This document shows positions 939 to 37,834 of a stretch of 64,000 bases of DNA, piece by piece. Each line of letters begins with the position of its first letter. The stretch's first letter is position 1. The stretch is from a virus, in IMG/VR virus record IMGVR_UViG_3300031857_000027; one strand, written 5' to 3'. Made by a program: the position numbers and the translations under genes. The notes under the pieces were generated by a model. That model was not told the DNA's origin. It searched no databases and was given only the letters and a program-made list of their open reading frames with translations.

Positions 939-1013
939 TGGTCCGGCTGCCAGGAATCGAACCTGGATCACAAGATTAGAAGTCATGTGTATTATCCATT
1001 ATACTACAGCCAG
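939..1013 (-). tRNA. tRNA-Arg(TCT)
   Basis: Cloverleaf, GGTTCGATTCC T-arm, anticodon loop CTTCTAA, encoded CCA. Confidence 0.92.
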
Positions 1014-1015
1014 AG

Positions 1016-1091
1016 TGGTGGGCTGTGCAGGACTTGAACCTGCACTCAACGAATTATGAGTTCGCTGCTTTGACCATTAAGCTAACAGCCC
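1016..1091 (-). tRNA. tRNA-CAT, most likely Ile2 (lysidine type), otherwise Met
   Basis: Cloverleaf, loop CTCATAA, GGTTCAAGTCC, CCA; overall resemblance to bacterial tRNA-Ile2. Confidence 0.88.
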
Positions 1092-1095
1092 GAAA

Positions 1096-1180
1096 TGGTG
1101 CGACTAGCCAGAATCGAACTGGCAAACCTTTCGGCGGCAGATTTTAAGTCTGCTGTGTTTACCTATTTCACCATAGTCGC
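1096..1180 (-). tRNA. tRNA-Leu(TAA)
   Basis: Cloverleaf with long variable arm, loop CTTAAAA, CCA end. Confidence 0.92.
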
Positions 1181-11565: not shown

Positions 11566-12207
11566 TTACTTCTCCAATAATTTATTCACAAACTCTCTCA
11601 GTAGTTTATGATGTCTCCCATGATGCCAATGTTTATGCAAATATGGTTTACTGTACCAATACTCTTCTGCTTCAAGGTGTGGACCTATAAGTCCTATTTT
11701 GTTTTGTATAATTGCTGCCGGATCGCCGTTGCTGTATCTTGCGATTGTTTCAAACTTTGATTCGTTTCCGATAAATGCAGGTCCATCGTAAAAGAAGAAC
11801 CTTTCTGTGTTGCCTTGCCAGTCACATTCAACTGCTTTGGAATAATATCGTTTAGTACAGGTATTTGGTCGTCGTATGTATTGCTTGGCTTCAACGCCAT
11901 CCATAATGTCCAAAAAATGCTTGTCAGCCCAATAAGCACCCATACAAATACCGAGAAATCTACCACCATTTCTAATGTACTGTCTGACACTAGATTCATG
12001 ATATTTAAACATATGGTCATAGGTGTCAGCATCGCCAATGCCACCAGGAAAACAAACAAGATCCACATCGTTGAAGTAATCGTCTTCGATTTCATGTTTG
12101 GTAAAAAGTTTATAGTTATAGTTAGCACCAAGTGCTTTGATTACACCATTACATGATTGTACAGAACACCTTGGGTGCTGTACGAAAAGAGCAATTGTAC
12201 AACTCAT
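11566..12207 (-). CDS. BPL-N / class I glutamine amidotransferase-like protein
   Basis: FPGG, GICMGAY nucleophile elbow, GPHLE (Cys-His-Glu triad). Confidence 0.8.
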   Translation of the reverse strand: MSCTIALFVQHPRCSVQSCNGVIKALGANYNYKLFTKHEIEDDYFNDVDLVCFPGGIGDADTYDHMFKYHESSVRQYIRNGGRFLGICMGAYWADKHFLDIMDGVEAKQYIRRPNTCTKRYYSKAVECDWQGNTERFFFYDGPAFIGNESKFETIARYSNGDPAAIIQNKIGLIGPHLEAEEYWYSKPYLHKHWHHGRHHKLLREFVNKLLEK

Positions 12208-20745: not shown

Positions 20746-20753
20746 TATTTATG
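20746..20753 (-). promoter_or_regulatory. late promoter candidate (CATAAATA)
   Basis: 7/8 match to TATAAATA upstream of the 20717 start. Confidence 0.6.
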
Positions 20754-22368
20754 TTTTCTGTATATCGCTAGACAATTCGGGGTCTTTTTGAAACTTATCC
20801 GATGCCTGTTCTTGTTCTTGTTTTTTGCCCTTTGCGGCATCTCTAACAATCTGAGCCTTGCGTGATAGAGTTCTTGCTGCTGCGCTTGGATCGTCAGTGT
20901 TTTCACTCACAGACTTCCAACCACCACCCATTTCTTTGTATTTCTTCGCAGCCCAACCGTTAGCATATGCTGAAGGATATACATCAAACTTAGATTTTGC
21001 TTGTGCTTTAGCCTGCGCCCACTTCTCAGGTGATGTAGGCACATTCTTTTCTTCAAGATATTCAACATCTTCACCCATTGCTCTTTTTTGACTCTGTGTG
21101 TATTTTCTTTGTTTAACTGGTGACATAGATGCCATTGAAGCCTTTTTTCTGTCTCTTTCTACTGCACTATGATAACCACTTCTCAATCTAACTGCCTGAC
21201 CCAGATGTTCATCACCCGCTTCATCATGTCCTTTTGATCTGGCGTCTTTTCCTTTTTTTGTGGCTATTTTTGCAGCACGATCCAAAAGTGCAGGCGAAAG
21301 TTCATCAAGTTGTTCAGTCTCTTCTTTGACATGACCATACTTCTTTTTGTACCAGTCGGGCATACCACTCTTTTGACGGAAGTATCTTACTGTTGCAGAA
21401 TCGTTTGCTTGATCACGATATTTGTTTTCTGCTGTTGTATTATGGCTCTTCATTGCTTCTGCTGCTTTATGGGCATCTTTGGCAATATATTCCAATTCAG
21501 CATTCGTCTTCTTATGATACTCATGACCTTCTAGTGGATGGCGCTGTGATGGGCGACCTTCAGTGAGTTCAACTTCTTCTTTGTTGTATTTCTTTTTTAA
21601 ATACTTATCAACCTTGCGTTCGTATTCACCTTTTGGTTTCTTAGGAACAGGAGTGCCGTGTGGTGAAGGAACATATCGTTTAACTTCTTCATTCAGTTCA
21701 CCACGCAGATAGTTGGCTGCTGTAGAGATATAATCTTCAGCAAGTGTAATCTTTGATTGAACCCATTCTGGCAGATTTGTGTTTTCTTCCATCAAGTCCA
21801 TCATGTCTTGTGCATTGAACATCAGTGAACGAATTTGTGACATCGCCATATCACCTTCATAATCATACTCACGTGCATCTTTTGCTTCTTTAATTGGTGT
21901 AACAATCGTAGAAGACTTATATGGTTTTTTAACTGGTCCAGACACAAATCGTCCTTTCTTTTCTAATTGTTCATCAATCTCTGTTTCTTCAGAAACTCTT
22001 GATGCTTTCATGATACCACGAATCAGTGGTGCTTTGAGTTGCTTGTGTCTTGGAACAGCAATGTGTTCTTTTGACTTTGGATGCCCATATACATCATGGC
22101 CACCACCTGTGCGTTTCAATGTCCAACCTGATTTGCGAAGATGAGCATGAACATCACGTGTCTTCATGCTTGACTCTGGCATCTCATCAAGTTGTTCAAC
22201 TTCTTCCACTTTATATTTCTTTTTGATTTCAGATTGCTTCGCAAGTCTTTCTTTATCGTCAGAAATACCGTAAGAATGACCCAACTCTTTGTAATAGTCG
22301 GGATGTGGTAGTCCCGACTTCTTACGCAGAGCCATTTGTCGTTGATGTAATTTATCTGCGACTGACAT
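20749..22368 (-). CDS. modular putative internal head polyprotein containing a HicA-like toxin domain (22000-22167)
   Basis: Modules split by EEVEQLDE, EETEIDE, EEVELTE, EETEQLDE and EDVEYLEE; HicA pattern MKTRDV...L..SGW...R.GGGH..Y.HP......VP.H..L...L.R.IMK. Confidence 0.75.
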   Translation of the reverse strand: MSVADKLHQRQMALRKKSGLPHPDYYKELGHSYGISDDKERLAKQSEIKKKYKVEEVEQLDEMPESSMKTRDVHAHLRKSGWTLKRTGGGHDVYGHPKSKEHIAVPRHKQLKAPLIRGIMKASRVSEETEIDEQLEKKGRFVSGPVKKPYKSSTIVTPIKEAKDAREYDYEGDMAMSQIRSLMFNAQDMMDLMEENTNLPEWVQSKITLAEDYISTAANYLRGELNEEVKRYVPSPHGTPVPKKPKGEYERKVDKYLKKKYNKEEVELTEGRPSQRHPLEGHEYHKKTNAELEYIAKDAHKAAEAMKSHNTTAENKYRDQANDSATVRYFRQKSGMPDWYKKKYGHVKEETEQLDELSPALLDRAAKIATKKGKDARSKGHDEAGDEHLGQAVRLRSGYHSAVERDRKKASMASMSPVKQRKYTQSQKRAMGEDVEYLEEKNVPTSPEKWAQAKAQAKSKFDVYPSAYANGWAAKKYKEMGGGWKSVSENTDDPSAAARTLSRKAQIVRDAAKGKKQEQEQASDKFQKDPELSSDIQKT

Positions 22369-24855: not shown

Positions 24856-25350
24856 TTAGCAGTTCCACTTTCTCAATGCTTTATTAATACGTGAATCTGG
24901 ATCACGTGCTGTCTTTGCTGATGTTAGTCTACGCTTCATCCCACCCATTCTGGCGCAAAATGACTTACGACGATTTGCTGCCTTAGAACCTGCTTTTAGT
25001 TTACTTGGTTTCGTTGTCACAGCAGTTTGTAATTTTGAACCAGGATTTTCACGACGATATGACTCAACACCTTTTTGATTCAAACCACCTTCTGGATTTT
25101 TACCTTCTTTACGCTGCCATGCTGCAACTTCTTCTAATTGTTCTTCTGTAAGTGGACCATCATCGGCTTCATAATCTTCTTTTTTTAACTTCATCATCTT
25201 CGGCTTTGTGAATACAGGATTATCTGCACCACCAGCACCACCTTCTCTCTCTTCTCTTACGCATGAGCCTTTTGCATATGCTTTTTTACCCGGCGCTGGT
25301 TTATATCCAGGCCAACATCTTTCATCCATCAGTTGTTTGAATGATTTCAT
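24856..25350 (-). CDS. modular basic protein with CTS-like N-terminus (DUF6321-like C-terminal domain)
   Basis: MKSFKQLMDE; CWPGY; EQLEE linker; GGLN.KG...RRKSFCARM...LRKWNC. Confidence 0.65.
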   Translation of the reverse strand: MKSFKQLMDERCWPGYKPAPGKKAYAKGSCVREEREGGAGGADNPVFTKPKMMKLKKEDYEADDGPLTEEQLEEVAAWQRKEGKNPEGGLNQKGVESYRRENPGSKLQTAVTTKPSKLKAGSKAANRRKSFCARMGGMKRRLTSAKTARDPDSRINKALRKWNC

Positions 25351-28049
25351 ACGTAGTTTCTCTTTTTAAATGTTATAAGTGAGATACCTTTTTTCTTCAA
25401 TTCATCTTCTTTTTGATCACCAATTGATGCTGTCGTTTCATCACCAGTAAGTTCACTAATATTCTTAGGCACAACTTGTGTTGCTTTACCCTTTTTACTC
25501 AACTTCTCACCCATGTCTCTAGCAGGAGATTCACCAGCACCTGCCATTGAAATACCAGGTTCAATGCCTCTGTCAATCTCAGAAATTATTTCTCTTTCTT
25601 CGGCTTTCTTCTGGAAGTTTTCTTTGATGGTGGCAAGGCTGATGGTTCTTCTTCCTTCGGCAACGGGTTTGTCAAGGGCTGGTCGTTCTTTTCTTCCAGT
25701 ACCGGTTCTAACCTTACCGAGTTGTTGGGCTGACGGGGTGGAACTATTCTGTCCATAAAGTGCTTCAATCGCAGAATGATCAGGTGAATGTATTTCATGC
25801 AAGTCCTCTTTTAATTTAACAACGTATCTGTTACCAACTTTTGCTACTGTGCCATTTTTTTGGTGTGCTTCTTTTGCTGCTGAACCACGAATGTAAAACA
25901 ATCTTGTCTTACCGTTCTTGTCTGTCAATAACTTCTGTTTCTTTTGCGTTTCTTCAAACTGTTTACCAATTAACTTTGTGCCAGAAACATGTTGAATCAT
26001 TTTCCATGCTTCTTTGTGATTCTTGTTCGCAAGATGTTCTTTGAATTTTTTCTTCTGTTCTGGTGTAGCCTTCTGATGAAACTTCATGACTTCCATCATG
26101 CCAATGTTACCTTCATATGCCGCTTCACTGATCTTACCTTTGCCATAGTTTGAAACATTGATTGGCTCACCCTTGCGTTCTGGATTAGGATCATGGCGGC
26201 GTTTTGAAGCCACGGCAGCAGCACGTTCTTTCTTAGATAGTGATGCTCTCTTTTCGTTTGACATACATTTTGGTTTTGCTTCACCTGGTTCTCTGGCGCA
26301 AGGACCAATTGCTTCACCTTTGCTATTGATGCGCTTCCAGCCACCTTCTGGATCAGTTTTACTAAACCACTTACGTAAATCTTCTTTAATCATACCTCTA
26401 CCTAATGTCAGTAGATTGTAAGCACCAGCATCAGACATTGTGTTTACTTCTTCTTCCTCTGTCATCTCTTCTTCATCTGACTTGAGCAAACGAAGTGTGC
26501 GTGTGACTTCTTCTACTGTATCACCTGTAACTGATACTGTGACTGCTTCATTCATCTTGGCCATTTTGTTTTGATGTGTCTCAACAGTCTTTGCAATTTT
26601 CTCTACCGGCACTAAACTACCATGCACTGAACGATGTGTAACTTTGCCGTCTTTACCATAACGGCCAAAGCCATAATACTCTAGACCCATCTTGGACATA
26701 TCTTCATGTGTGCCAGCATCGGCATGTGGTTTCATATCAGTACGAATCGGTGCAGTATCTTTCTTACCCAACTCTGTAGCAATCCAACCTTTTGCCAAAT
26801 CATTCTTCGGTGGCTTGCCGACGAACTTTTGCATGTTTTTAAAAATGCCATCAAGTTCTTTTGTCTTTGCTTCTACAACTTCCGGTGCTGCTGTACGCAA
26901 ATCTTCTGAATTATCAAACTCAACATAGTTGTCACGAAATAGTTTACCAAACATTGGTCGTGCTGCTTGTACAGATTCCCATTTCTCTTTACGAATGTCT
27001 TCTGGCACTGTACGACCACCACGTTGACCACGTTCAATGTTTCTTTCTTTTGATACTTCGTCTGCTGTATTGACCATGACCATGGATGTTTCATAGCCTA
27101 ACTTCTCAAGCATCTCTTTGATCTTGGCATACTTTTCTGGATCATCACCAGTACCATTGATGATCAATCCATTACGACCATGAAGTGCTAAACGTTGACG
27201 CAATTCTGTAACGTTCTTTGCTCTTTTACGAACAGCATTACGTTGTGATTCTTCATTCTCTGGCATCTTCTTATCAAGGTTTTCTTTGTCCATCAGATAC
27301 TCAAGTGCTTTATCAGAATTGATTTCTGTTAGACCATGACCATCTAGTGTCTTGCTTAACACATAGTCTTTGCCTGAACCAGGACCACCACCTAGAAATA
27401 CTGCTTTGAAAATACCTTTGTCGTGTACACCCTCACGAATGATTTCTTCGTGAAGTCTCATACCTTTACGTACATCATTGAACATTTGCTTGACATGAGC
27501 ATGAGACATTGATGATGGTGCGCCTTTCTTGAATGAATCAAGATCGCCACTCTTTGCGTGTTCACGCATTTTAGAAGCAGAAATGCCAGTTACACCTTCA
27601 GCATCAGGATCACGTTCACCTGCTGAGTGTACTTTGATTTCTTTGAAGTTGAAACGGGCACCTTCATGTGTGCCATTGTACTTGTGTAGCAGTCTGTGAT
27701 ATTCTTCTGTGCGGTCAGAACCACCAACCATGTGAAGATGTGTTACACCCTTCTTGTGTAATGCTTCGGCATGGTCAAAGAATGTTGGTTTTTCTTTAGA
27801 TGCTGCTGTGAAATTCGTGCCAGAAAATGCTCTCTTGGCATGTTTGACTTTTTGATCTGCTGTAAGGGGATTCTTCTTGGCGTCCTGTGAATGTGACAGA
27901 ACGATATGATGTGAGCCGCCAACTTTATCGGCGATCTCTTTGACTTTATTGACTAGTTTTTCGTGACCGTTTGTAATCGGATTCATGCGACCAAATGCTA
28001 GGACGGCATGTTTCTCTTTCTGTTCACGTAGAAAATCTCTAAATTTCAT
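25347..28049 (-). CDS. 900-aa multidomain protein: cytidyltransferase-like (HIGH) domain, zeta-toxin-like P-loop kinase and several small modules
   Basis: FGRMNPITNGH, GSDR, ISASKMR; GGPGSGKD, NSD, INGTG, RGGR.VP; N-terminus MKFRDFLRE. Confidence 0.8.
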   Translation of the reverse strand: MKFRDFLREQKEKHAVLAFGRMNPITNGHEKLVNKVKEIADKVGGSHHIVLSHSQDAKKNPLTADQKVKHAKRAFSGTNFTAASKEKPTFFDHAEALHKKGVTHLHMVGGSDRTEEYHRLLHKYNGTHEGARFNFKEIKVHSAGERDPDAEGVTGISASKMREHAKSGDLDSFKKGAPSSMSHAHVKQMFNDVRKGMRLHEEIIREGVHDKGIFKAVFLGGGPGSGKDYVLSKTLDGHGLTEINSDKALEYLMDKENLDKKMPENEESQRNAVRKRAKNVTELRQRLALHGRNGLIINGTGDDPEKYAKIKEMLEKLGYETSMVMVNTADEVSKERNIERGQRGGRTVPEDIRKEKWESVQAARPMFGKLFRDNYVEFDNSEDLRTAAPEVVEAKTKELDGIFKNMQKFVGKPPKNDLAKGWIATELGKKDTAPIRTDMKPHADAGTHEDMSKMGLEYYGFGRYGKDGKVTHRSVHGSLVPVEKIAKTVETHQNKMAKMNEAVTVSVTGDTVEEVTRTLRLLKSDEEEMTEEEEVNTMSDAGAYNLLTLGRGMIKEDLRKWFSKTDPEGGWKRINSKGEAIGPCAREPGEAKPKCMSNEKRASLSKKERAAAVASKRRHDPNPERKGEPINVSNYGKGKISEAAYEGNIGMMEVMKFHQKATPEQKKKFKEHLANKNHKEAWKMIQHVSGTKLIGKQFEETQKKQKLLTDKNGKTRLFYIRGSAAKEAHQKNGTVAKVGNRYVVKLKEDLHEIHSPDHSAIEALYGQNSSTPSAQQLGKVRTGTGRKERPALDKPVAEGRRTISLATIKENFQKKAEEREIISEIDRGIEPGISMAGAGESPARDMGEKLSKKGKATQVVPKNISELTGDETTASIGDQKEDELKKKGISLITFKKRNYV

Positions 28050-28081: not shown

Positions 28082-28096
28082 TATTTAGTATTTAGT
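28082..28096 (-). promoter_or_regulatory. tandem late promoter candidates (ACTAAATA twice)
   Basis: Two overlapping copies upstream of the 28049 start. Confidence 0.6.
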
Positions 28097-28799
28097 AAAC
28101 TTCTAGCGTGTTTGTGGTGGCCACGGTCCCTTGACAATGAATTTGATCCAATTCAACTAGAATTTCTTTGTTTAGCACAAGAAAGTGAGCATGTTCCGTG
28201 TCAATTCTAGTCTGATTTGTTACCGTAATGATTTGTCGTAAAGATTCTAGATAATTGTCTATCAAAGACGGACAGAAAGAATACATTCTGGTAATAAGAA
28301 GATTTGTTGCAAACTCCTTACGACTGTCGGTTAACCATGTTGGTATTCTTTTCTTGAACACATATTTACCAAAGTGATCATGTTCGTGAATATCAAAAGA
28401 ATTCAACAAATCTGTTCTACCTGACAATTTAAAGACTCTATTTACAGACAACATAATCTTGGCCAGATGTGGTTCTTGTTTTAGAAGCAGAAGAGTTTTC
28501 ATCAATAAAGTGCTTTCAGCCTCACTTTTGCGATGATTAACTGCAAATGTACTAATCATTTCATCACTGGAAAAGTCGGCTACAAAATCAACACAGTCTG
28601 AAATGATTTTGATTTTTTCTTCTTCAACTTTGTGTGGTGAACCATCAACGAATAAAACAATAGCGTCAGGTACTTTTTCTCTTAATAATTGTAATCCGTC
28701 TATAGTTTGTTCTAATCGTTCTTCACGTTTAATTTCACCCATGTCTGTGTTGAGTGCTGAAGTTACAATAAAAAGTTTGCGATCAGGTATCAGTGCCAT
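28092..28799 (-). CDS. putative glycosyltransferase-like protein
   Basis: FIVTSA, R.EQT, FKLSGR pattern; sugar cluster context. Confidence 0.5.
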   Translation of the reverse strand: MALIPDRKLFIVTSALNTDMGEIKREERLEQTIDGLQLLREKVPDAIVLFVDGSPHKVEEEKIKIISDCVDFVADFSSDEMISTFAVNHRKSEAESTLLMKTLLLLKQEPHLAKIMLSVNRVFKLSGRTDLLNSFDIHEHDHFGKYVFKKRIPTWLTDSRKEFATNLLITRMYSFCPSLIDNYLESLRQIITVTNQTRIDTEHAHFLVLNKEILVELDQIHCQGTVATTNTLEVY

Positions 28800-29464
28800 T
28801 CAAACTCCGAAAATAATTTAATTGTTTTGTATGTTGCTTTAGAATTCAATACATGAACTATTGTGTTAGTAATTTCCTTTGTATCTAACATTTTATCTTT
28901 AGAAGTATGTTTATCTTGCATTGGTGTTTTGATACCACCAGGATGAATACTTGTCACACGAATCTCATTCATTTGTGTATGCAGTTCAGAGCCCAACGCA
29001 CCAGCAAATGCAGTAATAGCATGTTTAGATGCCGAGTAAACTGCTTCCCATTCCATCTCTTTAAGACCTGCTACAGAGTTAATGAAGATAATATTACTAC
29101 CTTTGTTCATTAACTTGAGTGCTTGCAGTGTCACATACATTGTGCCTTTAACGTTCAAATCAATAATTTGATCTATCTTTTCAACTGTAAAATAACTTTT
29201 GAAACGCCCCCACTCATATATACCCGCATTGTTTACAAGCACATCAATGTATGTGCCAATTCTTTCAAATGCGGCTTTAACTTGATCTGACTTTGAGATA
29301 TCACATTCTATCCACTGAAATGTATCCGGTGCAGAAAATAGTTTTACTGGTGGTTTTGTGCGTGAAAGACCATACACGAAATAACCTTCATCAATCAGCC
29401 TATCTGCAATATCATGGCCAAGGCCATAACTACATCCTGTAACCACGGCAACTTTACGCATCAC
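28790..29464 (-). CDS. SDR family oxidoreductase
   Basis: TGCSYGLG, VNNAG, YSASK and PGG motifs. Confidence 0.92.
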   Translation of the reverse strand: MMRKVAVVTGCSYGLGHDIADRLIDEGYFVYGLSRTKPPVKLFSAPDTFQWIECDISKSDQVKAAFERIGTYIDVLVNNAGIYEWGRFKSYFTVEKIDQIIDLNVKGTMYVTLQALKLMNKGSNIIFINSVAGLKEMEWEAVYSASKHAITAFAGALGSELHTQMNEIRVTSIHPGGIKTPMQDKHTSKDKMLDTKEITNTIVHVLNSKATYKTIKLFSEFEWH

Positions 29465-30597
29465 ATCTCCTCAAAAACATCAATCGCAAGTTTCATTTCA
29501 TCTTCAGTAACATCATTCACAATCTTATAGTTACCAATTGCAATAGGCAGTGGTGCATATTGATTGCCGTTACGGTGTTTAGTTGCATCACGTAGACTCT
29601 CCAACAAATACTTCATATTGGTAAAGTCTTTATGAAATGTTTTCAGTTTCAATCTTTTTGCAACACCAAAGATTCGTTTCAATTGAACTGTGTCAATGTA
29701 GCCACGAATGAATGAGATACACGAACTATACAAACAATCTAATGCTACTGCTTCACCATGCAACAACTCTGGTATATTAGACATCTCAATTACAGGACTG
29801 AATGTGTGACCAAAATCTACGCAACGGTCTAATCGTTTTTCCCATAGATTCGGTCCAAGTTCTGCAATCATGTCTGTGATAGCAAGATTGATTACACGAA
29901 CTGGCACCGCACCATATTGAAACTTTTCATCAATCAGTATCTCTGCATTCTCTTCTAGCAGATGAAAAAGTTCTGGTGATTTGATAACTGCAAGTTTGAA
30001 TATTTCTGCAATGCCATTTACAATCTCACGTTCACTTTGCGTCTTGATAAACTTTTTATCAATGTATGTTGCAAGTGGTGGATAGTACGCACCGATACGA
30101 TTGCGTCTGCCTAGATGATTGACTCCAACTTTAGAGCCTACAGAAGCGTCAACGATGGCAAGAAGTGTTGTGGGAATTTTAACGTAGGGAATTCCACGAC
30201 GGTATATGCTACAAGCAAAGCCAACAATGTCCAGCAGAACACCTCCGCCAATTGCGATAATAGGTTCACGGCGTAACACTCCATATTGTTCAAAAAAGTC
30301 CAAAATACGATCAACATTTTTCCAATTCTTATTTTCTTCTTTGCAGTCTACGCAAAGTATTTTACAACTCAACTTGACTGCACCAAAATATGCTGCGATA
30401 CTATCTTTGTATAAATCATGTACTTCAGAATCAATCACGATAATTCTACGCTCACTATTCGTGATGTTTACAATATCTTGATTGCTTGGGCTAAAGATGT
30501 CAGCAGAGTATGTAAGTTTGAATTCTACTGGTAGTTCTGTTTTAACTGACCAAGTTCGTTTGAACTTGTCATAATCCATCATAAAGTCTAAACTCAT
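29461..30597 (-). CDS. sedoheptulose-7-phosphate cyclase (2-epi-5-epi-valiolone synthase-like; DHQS superfamily)
   Basis: GGGVLLD, PTTLLAIVDA, EL.PNLWE...R.VDFGHTFSP, HGEAV; lacks the AroB LNLGHTFGHAIE motif. Confidence 0.85.
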   Translation of the reverse strand: MSLDFMMDYDKFKRTWSVKTELPVEFKLTYSADIFSPSNQDIVNITNSERRIIVIDSEVHDLYKDSIAAYFGAVKLSCKILCVDCKEENKNWKNVDRILDFFEQYGVLRREPIIAIGGGVLLDIVGFACSIYRRGIPYVKIPTTLLAIVDASVGSKVGVNHLGRRNRIGAYYPPLATYIDKKFIKTQSEREIVNGIAEIFKLAVIKSPELFHLLEENAEILIDEKFQYGAVPVRVINLAITDMIAELGPNLWEKRLDRCVDFGHTFSPVIEMSNIPELLHGEAVALDCLYSSCISFIRGYIDTVQLKRIFGVAKRLKLKTFHKDFTNMKYLLESLRDATKHRNGNQYAPLPIAIGNYKIVNDVTEDEMKLAIDVFEEM

Positions 30598-31547
30598 TTC
30601 ATCGCCTTACTAAACAATTTACATGCATGAACATAAAAATACTTGGCTTTGTTGATATCACCCGCAATCAACTTAAATGGTAGCATACGAATGAACTGTG
30701 ATGCTTCTAGTATATCTATGAGTTTCATTTTATCTTCTGGCAACTCAGAGATAAAGTGTTTGTTGAACGTGTCAAAGTGTTCTGTGCCGCCATGAGGATT
30801 GAACAGATCAATTCCTATAACACGAACATCACGGTCGTTGATGAAACCATAGTGACTACGTGAACACTGAAGCACTTGTGCATAATCAAGATACTTGGTG
30901 TTCCACATACTTTCATCATATGTATCAATAAAAACTACACGATCTTCTTCAAATGAATACATGATGTTTTCAAGTGTGGGATTACCATGAATATTACACT
31001 CATCATCGTTTTCCAATTCTGCAAAGTATTCTTGCAAAACTTGAAGATAACCACCAATACCTACAATAAGGTCTCCGTTGAAACCATATGTGCCACGATA
31101 AAAGAAGTCTTTGAATGATGGCAGACTTATTGCATCAGCAATCTTCTGATCAATCTCTTCATCAAAATAAAGTCTTGGCGCACCAGGAATAGGTTCTTTT
31201 TTAATTGAATGAAGAGTATTCAAACCTTTCCAAACCGCTTGGCTCATTCTGAAGATTTGATCTTCACTCAATATGTCTTTGCTGAGAATGCTTTTGATGT
31301 CACGAAAACCTTCAAGGTATTCTAAATCAAACCATGCAGTTGTTTTGTTTGAATCTACATTCACAACTTTAGGAAACAAGCCAGGATATAGTGTATTGTA
31401 TTCTTGTAATTTCTTTAACTGAGAATACCAACGCATAAAACCATATTCACGATTTTCTATGCGTGAAATTTCTTTACGAACGATCTTCTCATCTGGTAGC
31501 CAGTAAGTTCTACTGAGTGAGCCACCTTTCAATGATATAGTTTTCAT
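30594..31547 (-). CDS. APH/choline-kinase-like phosphotransferase
   Basis: GGS glycine loop, VRK, HGNPTLENI (HGD-type loop with Asn), FID. Confidence 0.7.
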   Translation of the reverse strand: MKTISLKGGSLSRTYWLPDEKIVRKEISRIENREYGFMRWYSQLKKLQEYNTLYPGLFPKVVNVDSNKTTAWFDLEYLEGFRDIKSILSKDILSEDQIFRMSQAVWKGLNTLHSIKKEPIPGAPRLYFDEEIDQKIADAISLPSFKDFFYRGTYGFNGDLIVGIGGYLQVLQEYFAELENDDECNIHGNPTLENIMYSFEEDRVVFIDTYDESMWNTKYLDYAQVLQCSRSHYGFINDRDVRVIGIDLFNPHGGTEHFDTFNKHFISELPEDKMKLIDILEASQFIRMLPFKLIAGDINKAKYFYVHACKLFSKAMK

Positions 31548-32275
31548 TTTGCACCTAATGTTTGCCTTGCTATCTCAATTCCGTATTCTTGAGGACTGCC
31601 TAAAACAATCGTTTCTTGGTTACTACCAAGAGGATTCATGAATACTTGTTTATTAGATTGTATCATACTTTGTATCACATCTGCAATATATAATTCACCA
31701 TCTTTTTCGGCTAACTTGTTATAATATTCTAGATAAAGATGACCCGTCAGGAAACCATAGAAGCCTGATGATGCATACGGTGAGATTTGTTTCTTTTCTA
31801 CAATTTCAATTACCGTATTTTCAAATGCACGAACATAAGAATACTTTGGTGAGTTGCCCACAAAAACATCAATATATGCATCATGCTTTGCGGTTAAGTC
31901 ATCAGCAATAAAATCTATACGACGACCTTTAATAATTGTATCTGCATTGTGTACGAACGTTGGTAAATATTTGTTGTTCAGTTGTTCAATACCAATTGCT
32001 GCTGTGTGTGCTTGGCCTTTTGTGTCACCAATGTATAGAATATTGCTTTCATTCCAACCAAGTGGTTTGATTGCTTCAACAAGTTGATCTTTGAAATAAA
32101 TGTCTCTTTTATTGGCCACAAGAATCAGTTGTGTAACCCAACCAAGATTCTTCAAAATATCATATATGATTGTCTTGTCATTCCAAGGCAAAAGATATTT
32201 TGGTATGTCAAAGCCAACATCATGAAAACGGGTGTTATATCCCGCCATACAGATTATGAGATTCATTTCAACCAT
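31544..32275 (-). CDS. NTP transferase (sugar-1-phosphate nucleotidyltransferase-like)
   Basis: MAG...RF...PKYL, TKGQA.T, EKKQIS and LGSP motifs. Confidence 0.85.
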   Translation of the reverse strand: MVEMNLIICMAGYNTRFHDVGFDIPKYLLPWNDKTIIYDILKNLGWVTQLILVANKRDIYFKDQLVEAIKPLGWNESNILYIGDTKGQAHTAAIGIEQLNNKYLPTFVHNADTIIKGRRIDFIADDLTAKHDAYIDVFVGNSPKYSYVRAFENTVIEIVEKKQISPYASSGFYGFLTGHLYLEYYNKLAEKDGELYIADVIQSMIQSNKQVFMNPLGSNQETIVLGSPQEYGIEIARQTLGAK

Positions 32276-32976
32276 TCTTCCATATCATTTCGTAACAGTG
32301 AATGCCATGTGCCATTATACTCACCAGGTGAGAATGGATGATTGACATCACAGTATACTAGATTTTCACCAACAAGACCGTATCGTTTCCAGTTGGCACT
32401 CATAAAGTCTTCCATCATGAACTGCACACCATTATTGTAGAATTCATCATAGTGTTGATATGCATATGAATACTTGTCCATGTTTTCTGAGGATGAAAAC
32501 GCAAACTGATCATTACCAAAATCACGATTAGGTGACATACGACAGTTTGGAATGTATAGTTTGTTCGGATTCAATGTGTCAAAAGGAATACGAGCATTAA
32601 TTGCAAAATCAAACCGTGAACGAACAACCCAATCAAACTTCATGTTGTGATATTCTTCATACTCACGCTTTGTACGCATACATTCGTAAATTGCAAACAT
32701 CTGCGCCCATGTTGACATGCGACCATCTTTAACTTTCCAGTTTGGTGATGGTGGCGGTGTGTTTGTGTATTTTGATAAATCAATTGTGGGATTTGGTGAT
32801 GTGATGAAACTATGTGCATTATATTTCTCTGAAATATTTTGCATTTCTTCTGCTGGCATTTCCCACGAATGCAGAAACACAGTTACATCGTTGTTTTTGA
32901 TAATGTTTAGATTGTGATACTCAAAGCCTTTTTCCCACATTCTTGGTTGGCCAGAGATACAGAGTGCTATCTTCAT
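32263..32976 (-). CDS. putative glycosyltransferase-like protein
   Basis: KIALCISGQPR, F.HSW, D.VVRSRFD and NDQFA pattern. Confidence 0.55.
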   Translation of the reverse strand: MKIALCISGQPRMWEKGFEYHNLNIIKNNDVTVFLHSWEMPAEEMQNISEKYNAHSFITSPNPTIDLSKYTNTPPPSPNWKVKDGRMSTWAQMFAIYECMRTKREYEEYHNMKFDWVVRSRFDFAINARIPFDTLNPNKLYIPNCRMSPNRDFGNDQFAFSSSENMDKYSYAYQHYDEFYNNGVQFMMEDFMSANWKRYGLVGENLVYCDVNHPFSPGEYNGTWHSLLRNDMEEWLK

Positions 32977-33665
32977 AGGTCACGCCCCACATTTGCTTTG
33001 TTGTCTGTAATGCCGAATGTCTTCAGTTGTTCTTTTTCCATCACGACCATGCTGTTATAGAATGATACAGAATAAAGATTGTTATACACCGCAAGTGCTT
33101 CATCAGAAATTGGTGAGCCTTGAAAGTGTTGTTGATTCACAATATCTGTCACACGCTTACAGTGTTCAGTAAATGTGCCAGCACCACGGAATACACCACC
33201 CCATGGCTGTGGCCAATAACTTGTGTGAGTGTCTTCACAAATATAAACACCACCCTCTTTGATGTGTGTAAATACACTGTTCAATGTAGTGATTTGATGA
33301 TTCATTACATGAGAGCCGTCATCAATCACAATATCAAAATTGTTTTGTGTTTTCAAGAATTCTGACCAGAAGGCAGCGTCACCTTGGTCACCCATCACAA
33401 CTTTAACATCACCGTTGTATTCATATTTCAAACACTCTTCATTGATATCAACTGCCACAACTGAAGTATCAGGACCAAAATACTTTAGCCACATTTCAAT
33501 TGAACCACCACCAAGCACACCGATTTCTAAGATGCGTGGTGCTTTACCTACAAACTTCTTTAGGTGTCTTTCATAAACATCAAAGTAACCTGACCATTTT
33601 GTAGATGGCTTTTCTAAGTCCCAAAATAATTCTTTAATTCTATTTGTCGTCATATTTTGCCTCAA
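32973..33665 (-). CDS. class I SAM-dependent (sugar O-)methyltransferase
   Basis: ILEIGV..GGS, GDQ, IDDGSH and GGVYICED motifs. Confidence 0.85.
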   Translation of the reverse strand: MRQNMTTNRIKELFWDLEKPSTKWSGYFDVYERHLKKFVGKAPRILEIGVLGGGSIEMWLKYFGPDTSVVAVDINEECLKYEYNGDVKVVMGDQGDAAFWSEFLKTQNNFDIVIDDGSHVMNHQITTLNSVFTHIKEGGVYICEDTHTSYWPQPWGGVFRGAGTFTEHCKRVTDIVNQQHFQGSPISDEALAVYNNLYSVSFYNSMVVMEKEQLKTFGITDNKANVGRDL

Positions 33666-34482
33666 TCACTTTCTTCCATTCTGGCACACGATCATACTGA
33701 TGTACAATAGTATACTCTATTCCTGTTGAAGTTACAACCTTGTCACCTTCTAATTTCGGTGATGGTTCTAAAAGATGTGGTCTGAATTGATCAATCTTAC
33801 TTGGATCGGCAGTTGTGCCAAGTTGACATGCCCAACCATATTCTGACTGAGTGTACATTGACGAATCAATATATGGGTGTCTTGAAATCATTACATTGAA
33901 TACTGCTTGATCAACGATTGGTATTGGTCTGTTGATGCAGTTTAGAAACAACTGCAAAGTCAAATCCCTCATTGCATAACCACGACCAGCAAGAACACCG
34001 ACATTAAAGATCGTGTTGTTCTTAAAATCTTCGTAGATGCCTTGACCATAACACTGTGTTAGATTCTCACGACCCCATGGCTCATCTTTATATTTCATGC
34101 TTTCGGAAGAAAATACCAAATCTTCTTGTTTGGATAGATTTTCTTCTAACCATGTAACAGGGTTCTTTTGAAAGATAACATCTCGTACATCTGTGGTAAT
34201 TACATAACGATAGTCATTATCTTTGAGCAGTTTGTAAATGTGAATGAAACGCTCAACATGCACCATCAGTTGAGACTGATAAGTTAGATTGCCGTCTTTG
34301 TCTTGATTGAACGCTATGATTGAGAAGCCTGCGTCAGTTACCTTCTGTGCAGTTTCTTTATCGCAGTTCATGAGAATCAGAACTTTATCACCCTCAAAGC
34401 CTGATTCATTGATGGAATTAATCCAATATTTTAATTTTGCCCAGTCATAATTTGTTGAGCATCCCACGATCACATCTTTCAT
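33640..34482 (-). CDS. putative glycosyltransferase (GT-A)
   Basis: TDVRDVIFQ.NP, NVGV, DQAVFN and VHQYDR motifs. Confidence 0.7.
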   Translation of the reverse strand: MKDVIVGCSTNYDWAKLKYWINSINESGFEGDKVLILMNCDKETAQKVTDAGFSIIAFNQDKDGNLTYQSQLMVHVERFIHIYKLLKDNDYRYVITTDVRDVIFQKNPVTWLEENLSKQEDLVFSSESMKYKDEPWGRENLTQCYGQGIYEDFKNNTIFNVGVLAGRGYAMRDLTLQLFLNCINRPIPIVDQAVFNVMISRHPYIDSSMYTQSEYGWACQLGTTADPSKIDQFRPHLLEPSPKLEGDKVVTSTGIEYTIVHQYDRVPEWKKVIEAKYDDK

Positions 34483-34497
34483 AATATCTCCAGTGAT

Positions 34498-34683
34498 TTA
34501 TTTTATGTCAGTTTCTTTCCAACTTCCTGTAAACTTTTTATATTGTTGTGTGCTTTGACCAGGAGTGTCATCAAGATATTTAGCAGTGAGTTCAGGTCTT
34601 CCCCACTCACCTCCGCCGGCCTTAGATACAAACTCTTGTCTGCTGTCTTTGTTTGCCTTTAAATAATCTTTGAATGTTTTCAT
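34498..34683 (-). CDS. small protein with CTS-like N-terminus (61 aa)
   Basis: Starts MKTFKDYLK at an ATGA overlap; G.GEWG...L...Y..DTPGQ. Confidence 0.6.
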   Translation of the reverse strand: MKTFKDYLKANKDSRQEFVSKAGGGEWGRPELTAKYLDDTPGQSTQQYKKFTGSWKETDIK

Positions 34684-35003
34684 ATCGTGAATGAAGAACC
34701 GCAACCACACGTTGCAGTTACGTTTGGATTTTTGATTGTAAATGAAGCACCCATCATATCTTCTTTATAATCAATCACCGCTTCATTCATGTATTGCATA
34801 CTCATACTATCTATAACAACTCCAATACCATCTCTTTCAAATGTAAAGTCATCATCTGCTGCCGGCAATTCTTCTATTGAGAAGCCATATTGGAAACCAG
34901 AACAACCACCACCCTGAACGAACACACGTAGTTTGAGTGAAGGGTCTTCTTCAGCAATGATAGATTTAATTTTCTTTACAGCAGTGTCAGATATTGTAAC
35001 CAT
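34680..35003 (-). CDS. erpA: iron-sulfur cluster insertion protein (A-type carrier)
   Basis: GGGCSGFQY and NPN....CGCGSSF motifs. Confidence 0.9.
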   Translation of the reverse strand: MVTISDTAVKKIKSIIAEEDPSLKLRVFVQGGGCSGFQYGFSIEELPAADDDFTFERDGIGVVIDSMSMQYMNEAVIDYKEDMMGASFTIKNPNVTATCGCGSSFTI

Positions 35004-35284
35004 TATCCCCTCGTCAATTGCAATACTTTTTGCATTTGTTTCTCAATAATTGGACCACGATTTGGCCAATGAATGTATGGTTGACTTGCTGTCTTGTACA
35101 GATTTGTCAGAAATGGCATAATGATCTTTTCTACTTGCTGAAGTCTTGCTTTATACTCTTCAACAGTTTCATCTTTCTCCGCAATGACTGCTTGATATTC
35201 AACTTCATCAACTGTGCTGAAACCAAAATCATCATCACCATACTCTGCTAAAATTTTATTGATGTCGTAACTCATTTGTCCCAT
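35003..35284 (-). CDS. hypothetical protein
   Basis: DFGFS...PFL.NL...YIHWPNR pattern. Confidence 0.6.
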   Translation of the reverse strand: MGQMSYDINKILAEYGDDDFGFSTVDEVEYQAVIAEKDETVEEYKARLQQVEKIIMPFLTNLYKTASQPYIHWPNRGPIIEKQMQKVLQLTRG

Positions 35285-36495
35285 GCCTTCTGTGCGTTAA
35301 AGTTTTGTCTGCTGAACTCAAGTCTATCTACCAGTTTCAATGCTTTACCAAGATGATCAACAGCAACGAAACCTTCTGGTGCAGTAATACGGAAGCCATC
35401 GTCAGTGCGAACAAATGTGCCAATGCTCTTGATAGTTTCCAACTTACGAATGATCATCAACTTAGCATCAACAATCAGATTCATTAGATCAAATATTTGT
35501 TTCAGTTGAATCGCATTTGAACGATAGAAACGCATCACTTCATTTTTCTCTTTGATGCGTTTTTGTTTTGTGTCTTCTTTCTTTGCTGCCAGAATTTCTT
35601 TGTTCAGTTTTGCTTCTACGTAGTTAATTAACTCTTGTGTATGAACTCTGGTGTCAGCAATCTTTTTGCCTTCACGAACTTTCGTGTTGTTGAATGTTTT
35701 GATCTGTGTAAGAAAAACATCCGATGCAGCAATACGATTCAATGTCAATGCAGGTATCGTGTTGAAAACTCTACCTGCGTTTGAAAGAATAGATGTGATT
35801 GCTGCTGTCTCTTCTTCAGTAAACGTGACAGAACCAGACGCATCAGTAAACGATGCATCACGAAACCAAACATCTTTTGTAGTCTTTAAATGACCAATAT
35901 CAATGTTGAATGATGCTTTCATTGTCTCTAATGTTTTACCGGAGTATGATGTGTGAAACACCACACCAATCTGTGCCGCTAACATTGTTTGTGCTAACTT
36001 TGATTTTACTGGCACAGCATATACGATTGTGTTTGGCTGAAAGATAATATATTCTTCACCCGCAATAGTTTCTTTTTTGATGTCGCCTTTGCTGAACATC
36101 ATGTCGCCTTGCAAAACACCTTTGATGCCCAACTTAGGCAAGAATGCCAATGCAAGTTTGAGTTTTTGATTTAAACCCTCACCAGGATGATTTTCGTCAA
36201 TGTCTTCATCAGTATAATTCAATTTTGCATTTTTTGCAAATACTGATTTCGTACCAACGAAAAATTTACCGTTTTCTGGATTTGTGCCAGCAAAGATAGC
36301 AGGCGCACCATCCCATTTTGTAGTCACATTTAATTTTGAGCCTGTGTGACCAGCAAGCATATTGCGTAAAGAACGGAGAAATTCTATTGCTTCACGTGCG
36401 CCCGATACACCGGCGTTTAATACATTATCTTCAAGATGTTCAAGGTGAACATTCTTGCCTTCTTTACTCTCTTTTATGTAATCCATGAATTTCAT
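35272..36495 (-). CDS. DUF6267-like protein, putative ligase/nucleotidyltransferase fold, CTS-like N-terminus
   Basis: HLEHLED; KWDG (motif I), QGD, EGFV (motif IV), KLVDR (motif V); starts MKFMDYIKE. Confidence 0.65.
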   Translation of the reverse strand: MKFMDYIKESKEGKNVHLEHLEDNVLNAGVSGAREAIEFLRSLRNMLAGHTGSKLNVTTKWDGAPAIFAGTNPENGKFFVGTKSVFAKNAKLNYTDEDIDENHPGEGLNQKLKLALAFLPKLGIKGVLQGDMMFSKGDIKKETIAGEEYIIFQPNTIVYAVPVKSKLAQTMLAAQIGVVFHTSYSGKTLETMKASFNIDIGHLKTTKDVWFRDASFTDASGSVTFTEEETAAITSILSNAGRVFNTIPALTLNRIAASDVFLTQIKTFNNTKVREGKKIADTRVHTQELINYVEAKLNKEILAAKKEDTKQKRIKEKNEVMRFYRSNAIQLKQIFDLMNLIVDAKLMIIRKLETIKSIGTFVRTDDGFRITAPEGFVAVDHLGKALKLVDRLEFSRQNFNAQKAWDK

Positions 36496-37259: not shown

Positions 37260-37267
37260 TATTTATA
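37260..37267 (-). promoter_or_regulatory. T4 late promoter TATAAATA
   Basis: Perfect gp55 consensus 28 nt upstream of the 37232 start. Confidence 0.75.
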
Positions 37268-37270
37268 TTA

Positions 37271-37834
37271 TCACAGATAGTGTAGATATCCTCCAATAAT
37301 GTATTTGGTGTTGTCTACTGGCCGACTTGCAATGTGTGGATGTGTCCATAAAGGTGGAAATATGAGCAATTTACCTTCTCTAGGCTGAACTTTGATCTTA
37401 GGTGGCACGTTCTTATTCAACTGAAATACAGTTTCTCCACCCTCCATAACATCATTTAGATACCAGAAAAACACAAGAAATCTTCGTGCGGAATCATGAT
37501 TCTCTACATCTACATGAAACTGTATTTCATCTTTATCGTTAGGAAAGTACCGTTTCATCCTCAATTCTTCAAAACCATATTCTTCTGGCCAAGCCATATC
37601 ATCCACACCAACATCTTTCTTATAAACTTCAATATAGGTGTGTAGAGTAGACATAAGATAATCTATCTCTTTCTTCCACGTGCTTGAATTTTGATTCAAG
37701 TTGATTTCTGTAAATGAGCGATGACCGTCAAGCACGACATTCTCTTGTTGGTCAACATTTTTTTCAAATTTATCTATTGTATTACGACAAAGTATTGGTG
37801 GTAAAACATTATCATATGTTTTCACGTAACTCAT
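37271..37834 (-). CDS. 2OG-Fe(II) oxygenase
   Basis: HVD, YLNDV..GGET, FPP.WTH.H and KY motifs. Confidence 0.88.
   Translation of the reverse strand: MSYVKTYDNVLPPILCRNTIDKFEKNVDQQENVVLDGHRSFTEINLNQNSSTWKKEIDYLMSTLHTYIEVYKKDVGVDDMAWPEEYGFEELRMKRYFPNDKDEIQFHVDVENHDSARRFLVFFWYLNDVMEGGETVFQLNKNVPPKIKVQPREGKLLIFPPLWTHPHIASRPVDNTKYIIGGYLHYL

Follow-up and report, generated by a model that had tools for sequence, protein, structure and literature searches.

The presence of a cyclase of the EEVS type (synthases of 2-epi-5-epi-valiolone) among glycosyltransferase-like genes of a phage raises the question of what the phage makes with it, and whether the genes packed around it belong to the same route. 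The cyclase gene lies in an eight-gene block (positions 28092-34482) of the window, i.e. the whole stretch of 64,000 nucleotides analysed here, which comes from a 133-kb IMG/VR virus record (IMGVR_UViG_3300031857_000027) estimated to be 75% complete. The genes are referred to below as g1, g2, g3, g4, g5, g6, g7 and g8, in the order of their transcription, g6 being the cyclase gene. With modest confidence, we favour a reading in which g4-g7 constitute a donor cassette of bacterial derivation that would lead to a nucleoside diphosphate (NDP)-C7-cyclitol, and that occupies a slot in a phage glycan island decorating a glycoconjugate.

The block consists of eight minus-strand open reading frames (ORFs), with the ends of neighbouring frames overlapping by 4-26 bases (Table 1). 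An original prediction, made from the letters of the window, had listed eight overlapping and co-oriented genes for glycosyltransferases, a methyltransferase, a nucleotidyltransferase, a kinase, a cyclase and a reductase; the ORFs and the family and fold matches agree with this list and its order, 'GT-like' for the third gene and 'APH-like kinase' for the fifth being the weaker labels. The order is the same in all 37 IMG/VR loci found via the cyclase, as well as in further loci found via the upstream gene, and the arrangement is therefore not a matter of chance. A crude hydropathy test detected no membrane-spanning stretch in the eight proteins, except for a buried hydrophobic strand in the cyclase.

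The g6 product matches the families DHQ_synthase (PF01761; E 7e-36) and DHQS_C (PF24621; E 9e-19), and scores 215 bits against the aroB equivalog, below the cut-off of 305. Against solved structures, it scores 287 bits with ValA (4p53), the EEVS of the validamycin route, 223 with the desmethyl-4-deoxygadusol synthase of Anabaena (DDGS; 5tpr), <=144 with 3-dehydroquinate synthases (DHQS) and 95 with the synthase of 2-deoxy-scyllo-inosose (DOIS). The motifs PNLWE and VDFGHTFSP, to which the original prediction had drawn attention, are present. Asp261 (VDFGH) and His341 (KHRNG) align with the Asp and His of ValA, the corresponding residues of DDGS being Ala and Thr, and lie at the two sites reported to discriminate between the enzymes. 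That EEVS can be told from DDGS by two sites is documented (PMC4426668). The catalytic and metal-binding residues (D150, K156, E198, K201, R258, H264 and H280) are conserved. When the 150 nearest 50%-cluster representatives and the query (151 sequences) were compared, the NAD-binding GGGV segment (G117-V120) and the metal ligands E198, H264 and H280, which are invariant in the cassette clade described below, were found in 148-151 sequences; among the 150 representatives, N166 is kept in 129, the Asp in 149, the His in 129 and the Asp261/Pro268/His341 triple in 102. Trees are reported to place 2-epi-valiolone synthases (EVS) close to DHQS (PMC5133447), so that g6 is unlikely to be an EVS. The profile scores and active-site residues together give good support to the predicted assignment of g6 as an EEVS-type enzyme and not an AroB, as originally proposed.

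Many public EEVS-like cyclases (P0243, P0249, P0255 and others) form the C-terminal half of proteins of ~720-760 amino acids (aa), which carry an N-terminal domain of ~350 aa.

The nearest non-phage relatives of the cyclase (44-64% identity) are encoded with an NTP-transferase gene and a kinase-like gene directly upstream and a reductase gene directly downstream. The order g4-g5-g6-g7 was observed in an uncultured gammaproteobacterium, Ca. Caenarcanales, Ca. Actinomarina, Magnetovibrionaceae, Marinomonas, Verrucomicrobiota, Bacteroidetes and Pelagibacterales; in Prochlorococcus, g4-g5-g6 is followed by an aldo-keto reductase gene, and in Balneolaceae, Haliangiales and an archaeon the cassette genes occur in another order. 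Identities range from 26 to 64%. In a tree of 79 cyclases, the copies with a kinase-like neighbour and the phage copies form one clade (Shimodaira-Hasegawa-like approximate likelihood ratio test, SH-aLRT, 93), the phage cyclases being monophyletic (95) and sister to those of Actinomarina (98), while the cyclases of Streptomyces, Nocardia and Burkholderia symbionts, which have no kinase-like neighbour, fall outside it. The surroundings of the bacterial cassettes include Wzz, Wza, GT1 and an acyltransferase in one locus; GT2, GT47 and a sulfotransferase in another; GT2 next to a giant protein with PKD repeats; a methyltransferase together with CTP_transf_3 in Prochlorococcus; GT1, GT2 and radical SAM in Pelagibacterales; and GT2 with GtrA, several more GT2, GT1 and GT8 in Actinomarina. 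Judged from their predicted gene content, these contexts are glycan loci. The reductase, kinase-like and nucleotidyltransferase genes which the original prediction had combined with the cyclase into an NDP-cyclitol set indeed travel with it across phages and many bacteria, and the gene-order comparisons make the linkage of the four core genes g4-g7 well supported.

The g4 product matches NTP_transferase (E 3e-11) and, in the PDB, most closely a nucleoside-diphosphate-sugar pyrophosphorylase (4evw; E 2e-18), with A11 G12 ... R16 F17, P25 K26, T85, Q88, N110 and D112 invariant across 17 phage and bacterial homologues. The g7 product matches adh_short (E 2e-44) and retains the residues of a short-chain dehydrogenase/reductase (SDR), namely TGxxxGxG at residue 9, NAG at 79 and S130...Y143xxxK147; some bacterial cassettes have an aldo-keto reductase instead, and the exchange of an SDR for an unrelated enzyme suggests a simple ketoreduction. 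The g5 product scores 22.8 bits against APH, just short of the cut-off of 23.2, and an alignment of 20 homologues shows its GGS loop, K25, N194 and D208 to be invariant. With the phosphate lost in the cyclase reaction, nucleotidylation would first require a fresh phosphorylation, for which g5 is the only kinase candidate.

Related phages were surveyed at the same position, using the upstream DUF6267 gene as the anchor and typable loci only. The cyclitol cassette is present in 58 typed loci and absent from six (L154, L182, L184, L185, L190, L196), these figures being counts of loci and not of independent phages, as some contigs were fetched twice. The six loci without the cassette retain g1, g2, g3 and g8. 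Between g3 and g8, the alternative module, as read in L190, L184 and L185, encodes a 248-aa kinase and a 339-aa nucleotidyltransferase fused to a HAD 'capsule biosynthesis phosphatase', to which L190 and L184 add a GalE/4,6-dehydratase-like enzyme; L154, L182 and L196 were assigned to this group solely because g4-g7 are missing. The alternative kinase, which has an HGD motif, is distantly homologous to g5 (hhalign probability 97.7%), and the nucleotidyltransferase half shares 26% identity with g4. In the more distant L200, the slot holds a HAD gene, a g1-like gene, GT4, a HAD-NTP-transferase fusion and a methyltransferase. Because the alternative module resembles a normal sugar-nucleotide route, the slot is best read as a swappable module for donor synthesis; both modules appear to have a kinase-to-nucleotidyltransferase core in common and to differ in the source of the substrate. 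This exchange is the strongest comparative evidence that g4-g7 would make an activated donor, and near-identical phages differing only in the donor module amount to a natural experiment. Co-occurrence, which the original prediction had named as a check, holds for g4-g7, which recur together; it does not extend to the three glycosyltransferase-like genes and the methyltransferase, which also surround the ordinary sugar-nucleotide module.

In the proposed pathway, g4-g7 would act as a self-contained donor-synthesis cassette acquired from bacteria. The cyclase, going by its family and active-site residues, would convert sedoheptulose 7-phosphate into 2-epi-5-epi-valiolone or a stereoisomer with loss of the phosphate, the SDR would reduce the ring ketone to a hydroxyl, the kinase-like protein would phosphorylate the pseudo-anomeric hydroxyl, and the nucleotidyltransferase would yield the NDP-C7-cyclitol. 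The succession of a 1-kinase and a nucleotidyltransferase leading to an NDP-cyclitol is established for acarbose (PMC9200736). The phosphorylation is the weakest of the four steps because of the HGN loop of g5, considered below. Around the slot stand two proteins of predicted GT-A fold, a DUF7796 protein and a methyltransferase, and the island would build or decorate a glycoconjugate during infection, most likely on the host envelope, with the activated carbasugar replacing, or joining, an ordinary sugar nucleotide in that glycoconjugate.

Table 1. Positions of the genes of the block and of other features of the window, with the basis of each assignment.
Feature	Position	Strand	Assignment	Basis
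g1	33640..34482	-	280 aa, GT-A-fold glycosyltransferase-like	AlphaFold2 (AF2) fold, weak phrog_1579
g2	32973..33665	-	230 aa, class I S-adenosylmethionine (SAM)-dependent methyltransferase	Methyltransf_24, phrog_21658
g3	32263..32976	-	237 aa, DUF7796 protein, probably glycosyltransferase-like	PF25072, phrog_13607
g4	31544..32275	-	243 aa, sugar-1-phosphate-type nucleotidyltransferase	NTP_transferase
g5	30594..31547	-	317 aa, protein-kinase-like fold, presumed cyclitol kinase	APH 22.8 bits
g6	29461..30597	-	378 aa, EEVS-type sedoheptulose-7-phosphate cyclase	DHQ_synthase + DHQS_C, ValA match
g7	28790..29464	-	224 aa, classical SDR, presumed ketoreductase	adh_short
g8	28092..28799	-	235 aa, GT-A-fold glycosyltransferase-like	AF2 fold
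tRNA cluster	939-1180	-	Arg-TCT, Met-CAT, Leu-TAA; three genes	
HicA-like ORF	20749-22368	-	539 aa, HicA-toxin-like domain (residues 71-122)	PF07927
Downstream frame of island	25347-28049	-	900-aa protein	
IscA-like gene	34680-35003	-	Fe-S cluster assembly, just upstream of island	PF01521
Upstream frame of island	35272-36495	-	407-aa DUF6267 protein	
TATAAATA	37260-37267		Single occurrence	
Oxygenase gene	37271-37834	-	2-oxoglutarate (2OG)-Fe(II) oxygenase	phrog_61

The methyltransferase g2 (Methyltransf_24, E 8e-6; phrog_21658, E 1e-21; motif ILEIGVLG at residue 45) is absent from four cyclitol loci (L020, L026, L027, L037) and is kept in the loci with the alternative module. It is therefore not a cyclitol-specific methyltransferase, and the methylated cyclitol that the original prediction had considered possible is not indicated. 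The same distribution, together with the absence of the methyltransferase from the bacterial cassettes, speaks against the notion of a free small cyclitol, such as a gadusol-like ultraviolet screen, produced by the cyclase, the methyltransferase and an oxidoreductase. Such a product would suit the lake-water habitat of the phage, and an EEVS with a methyltransferase-oxidoreductase does give gadusol in vertebrates (PMC4426668), but what always accompanies the cyclase is the kinase-like gene together with the nucleotidyltransferase gene, neither of which a free sunscreen requires, and we regard this notion as highly improbable.

The candidate transferases are less easily classified. Neither g1 nor g8 has a Pfam family match, and g1 matches phrog_1579 'glycosyltransferase' weakly. 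The AF2 model of g1 is of moderate quality (predicted local distance difference test, pLDDT, 64), with residues 1-205 usable, and its Foldseek matches in the PDB are SpsA, GpgS, the UGGT catalytic domain and GT6/GT8 (E ~2e-7, template modelling (TM) score 0.40-0.48); a TDV(R/K)D motif is conserved after strand 4, and identity across 16 related loci is 73-95%. The model of g8 (pLDDT 87) matches retaining GT-A enzymes of GT6/GT8, including alpha-1,3-galactosyltransferase and glycogenin (E 3e-6, TM ~0.5), and its fold neighbours in BFVD and the Atlas are glycosyltransferase-like proteins of cyanophages and giant viruses, including HtrL_YibB, DUF7796 and Stealth; a plain DxD is not present. Atlas feature searches for g8, which serve as leads only, gave WavE and DUF7796 at 0.88-0.90, and the g8 alignment retrieved only close relatives in a large protein search. 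The g3 product matches PF25072 (DUF7796) with 28 bits, just over the cut-off (E 1e-6), and phrog_13607 (E 8e-22), and has distant homologues (22-26% identity) in cyanomyoviruses, one of which, SSM2_209 of S-SM2, is annotated as a capsular polysaccharide biosynthesis protein. It is probably glycosyltransferase-like, a weak label based on DUF7796 and indirect fold hints only. Searching PDB sequences with profiles of g1, g3 and g8 gave nothing, hhalign found no relation among the three, and g3 and g1 had no BLASTP match to g8.

The most divergent gene of the block is g8, with 56-70% identity where the cyclases are 95-99% identical, and its tree conflicts with those of the neighbouring genes, which suggests recombination or rapid divergence at g8.

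The window has a G+C content of ~38% and encodes a UvsX-like recombinase, a DnaB-like helicase and virion proteins, in keeping with the original view that it belongs to a phage; by UvsX, the closest isolates are T4-like phages of Proteobacteria (56-65% identity). Its source is classed as an uncultured T4-like phage of a lake. Near-identical copies of the block DNA were found in 20 sequencing runs from 14 studies, labelled mostly as freshwater, lake water or 'fungus metagenome', none of the runs being listed as RNA. Megablast of the block against GenBank phages gave zero matches, and a protein search with the cyclase identified no EEVS-type gene among 50,697 GenBank phage records, the only matches being AroB-like (<=31% identity) and mostly host DNA. 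In full-text literature searches, no paper was found that connected EEVS with a phage or an auxiliary metabolic gene, or that described such a pathway in a virus, in line with the original prediction, which knew of no phage pathway of this kind.

The T4-like nature of the phage also brings to mind the glucosylation of hydroxymethylcytosine in T4, since T-even relatives sugar-modify their DNA by means of phage genes, and the original prediction had named DNA among the possible targets of the cyclitol. No gene of the ThyA/dCMP-hydroxymethylase family (PF00303) was detected in the 133-kb record, in four partial relatives or in a complete relative of 172 kb that has terminal repeats, the T4 alpha- and beta-glucosyltransferase families not having been specifically searched; T4-type DNA glycosylation is for this reason unlikely. 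As the glycosyltransferase-like proteins moreover resemble the HtrL and cyanophage 'LPS cluster' type (LPS, lipopolysaccharide), an island that glycosylates phage DNA appears a very remote prospect.

Several observations weigh against the proposed NDP-cyclitol pathway. The product of the clade to which g6 belongs is predicted from family membership and active-site residues, and the cyclase tree was built without ValA, AcbC, EVS, EboD and DDGS references. Homologues of g1, g2, g3 and g8 were not found next to the bacterial cassettes. In the kinase-like protein, the catalytic loop reads HGNxTLEN, with Asn replacing the catalytic Asp, in 19 of the 20 g5 homologues, HGD occurring in the archaeal copy only, and the closest, though weak, PDB profile match (E 0.017) is the JAK2 JH2 pseudokinase, which carries the same HGN. 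Were g5 dead or otherwise active, no nucleotide-activated cyclitol would arise and the nucleotidyltransferase would act on a host sugar phosphate. The residues invariant in its homologues, however, are those for nucleotide binding (the Gly-rich loop, K25, N194 and D208), g5 overlaps the cyclase gene by four bases and adjoins the cyclase in most bacterial loci, and its homologue in the alternative module has HGD, so that a role of this sort is very unlikely.

A further difficulty for the NDP-cyclitol pathway is that no glycosyltransferase-like gene co-varies with the type of module, and none is evidently tied to the cyclitol. The trees of g1, g3, g8 and a backbone gene need 5, 4, 5 and 4 changes of module type, respectively, and the g8 of L154, which has the alternative module, is sister to that of L023, which has the cyclitol module. 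Hence the glycosyltransferase-like enzymes either accept both donors, as a close steric mimic would allow, or never use the product of the module. The latter would apply if the NDP-cyclitol or cyclitol phosphate were an untransferred end product, a non-hydrolysable mimic blocking glycosyltransferases of the host or of rivals, for example in envelope synthesis, with the flanking genes using host sugar nucleotides. Carbasugar nucleotides are known as glycosyltransferase inhibitors. Bacteria, however, carry the cassette in their own glycan loci, which fits incorporation better than self-poisoning, and in the related phages an ordinary donor module can stand in the same slot; an inhibitor is thus quite unlikely.

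The transfer step raises the last objection. Known pseudoglycosyltransferases are GT-B enzymes that use the unsaturated guanosine diphosphate (GDP)-valienol, the double bond of which aids the departure of the leaving group. The transferases here have a predicted GT-A fold, no dehydratase or epimerase is evident, and to our knowledge carbasugar transfer by GT-A enzymes is chemically unprecedented. A donor of the cytidine diphosphate (CDP)-alcohol type, from which the cyclitol phosphate would be passed on as a phosphodiester decoration, as with CDP-choline, CDP-glycerol, CDP-ribitol and CDP-inositol, would break no bond to a carbocyclic carbon, and attack at phosphorus would sidestep the difficult displacement of the nucleotide from a saturated carbasugar. 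The placing of a kinase-fold enzyme beside an NTP_transferase is that of LicA/LicC, and a Stealth protein, a hexose-1-phosphate transferase, ranks 26 among the fold neighbours of g8. The LicD, TagF and CDP-alcohol phosphatidyltransferase families were nevertheless not detected in the block, and it is with ordinary GT-A glycosyltransferases of the retaining kind that the folds of g1 and g8 match best, which leaves the CDP-alcohol type of donor an unlikely alternative, yet one to be taken seriously.

For the NDP-cyclitol pathway, we infer the kinase step, the transfer and the acceptor alike. Host envelope glycans are somewhat more likely acceptors than virion proteins, since the glycosyltransferase-like proteins are akin to LPS-type families (HtrL, cyanophage LPS clusters). 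A broader proposition, which we put forward as possible but doubtful, is that the activated carbasugar is a genuine glycan building block, a glycosidase-resistant C7-cyclitol that planktonic bacteria (Actinomarina, SAR11 relatives, Prochlorococcus) and their phages insert into surface glycoconjugates, and that, according to which module the slot holds, the same phage transferases of GT-A fold accept either an ordinary sugar nucleotide or the carbocyclic counterpart. So far, C7-cyclitols are known from antibiotics (acarbose, validamycin), from insecticidal products of symbionts and from sunscreens, and a 2026 review of the field mentions neither virus nor polysaccharide. If true, the proposition would make these transferases the first pseudoglycosyltransferases of GT-A fold and would be the first case of a carbasugar used outside secondary metabolism, extending carbasugar chemistry to the cell-surface glycobiology of abundant aquatic bacteria and of a widespread lake phage lineage, and a glycosidase-proof residue would be relevant to phage receptors, grazing and phage depolymerases.

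Other features of the window were also recorded (Table 1). The 900-aa protein that frames the island downstream combines a cytidylyltransferase-like domain at the N terminus with a P-loop kinase of zeta-toxin/AAA_33 type and further modules. Successive parts of the phrog_455 profile match the DUF6267 protein and the 900-aa protein, and the two may thus be one gene or direct neighbours in other phages. At the place of the IscA-like gene, the more distant relative L200 has a NifU-like gene (11642-12031). No HicB-like gene was found among ten scanned ORFs neighbouring the HicA-like ORF. The oxygenase gene adjoins the DnaB-like helicase gene. Promoter-like and terminator-like sites show no excess over chance, and TATAAATA is rarer than expected by chance.

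Blocks of sugar-nucleotide and glycosyltransferase genes likewise occur in T4-like aquatic phages as the 'LPS' clusters of cyanophages (S-SM2, S-SSM7, P-SSM2), whose function Sullivan et al. 2010 (PMC3037559) did not settle. In S-SM2, the 'LPS gene cluster' combines a distant homologue of g3 with nucleotidyltransferases, GT11, GT25 and two phosphoheptose isomerases, enzymes that likewise consume sedoheptulose 7-phosphate. Unlike the block described here, the cyanophage clusters have no sugar-phosphate cyclase.

An EEVS-type cyclase likewise starts the routes to gadusol (with the bifunctional methyltransferase-oxidoreductase MT-Ox as its partner; PMC4426668) and the kirkamide/streptol clusters of Burkholderia leaf symbionts (PMC4426668, PMC12904256), systems which make free small molecules. 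The cyclases of the Burkholderia symbionts are in the same wider tree, outside the cassette clade, and in a nearby cluster of secondary-metabolite type the cyclase is accompanied by a ROK kinase, a HAD hydrolase and an alcohol dehydrogenase (ADH).

The acarbose route runs from a sedoheptulose 7-phosphate cyclase through ketoreduction, C-1 phosphorylation and nucleotidylation to an NDP-cyclitol and its transfer (PMC9200736). The GDP-valienol branch of acarbose and validamycin (AcbC/ValA, AcbN, AcbU, AcbR/VldB, AcbS/VldE) has the EEVS-type cyclase in common with the block; a scan of the eight genes detected no members of the ROK-type 7-kinase, epimerase, dehydratase, HAD phosphatase, aminotransferase and GT-B pseudoglycosyltransferase families. 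The kinase-like protein of the block differs from its acarbose counterpart in its atypical catalytic loop, and the nucleotidyltransferase matches the short sugar-1-phosphate type, whereas AcbR is of the longer GlgC type. The setting differs as well, being a phage glycan island and bacterial surface-glycan loci instead of an antibiotic cluster.

A kinase of protein-kinase-like fold beside an enzyme of the NTP_transferase family is also found in LicA/LicC (choline) and AmgK/MurU (N-acetylmuramic acid, MurNAc), pairs that carry out a two-step activation of a hydroxyl compound. The block differs from both in having Asn instead of the catalytic Asp, and in that the presumed substrate would be a carbocycle supplied in situ by the cyclase and the reductase encoded alongside.

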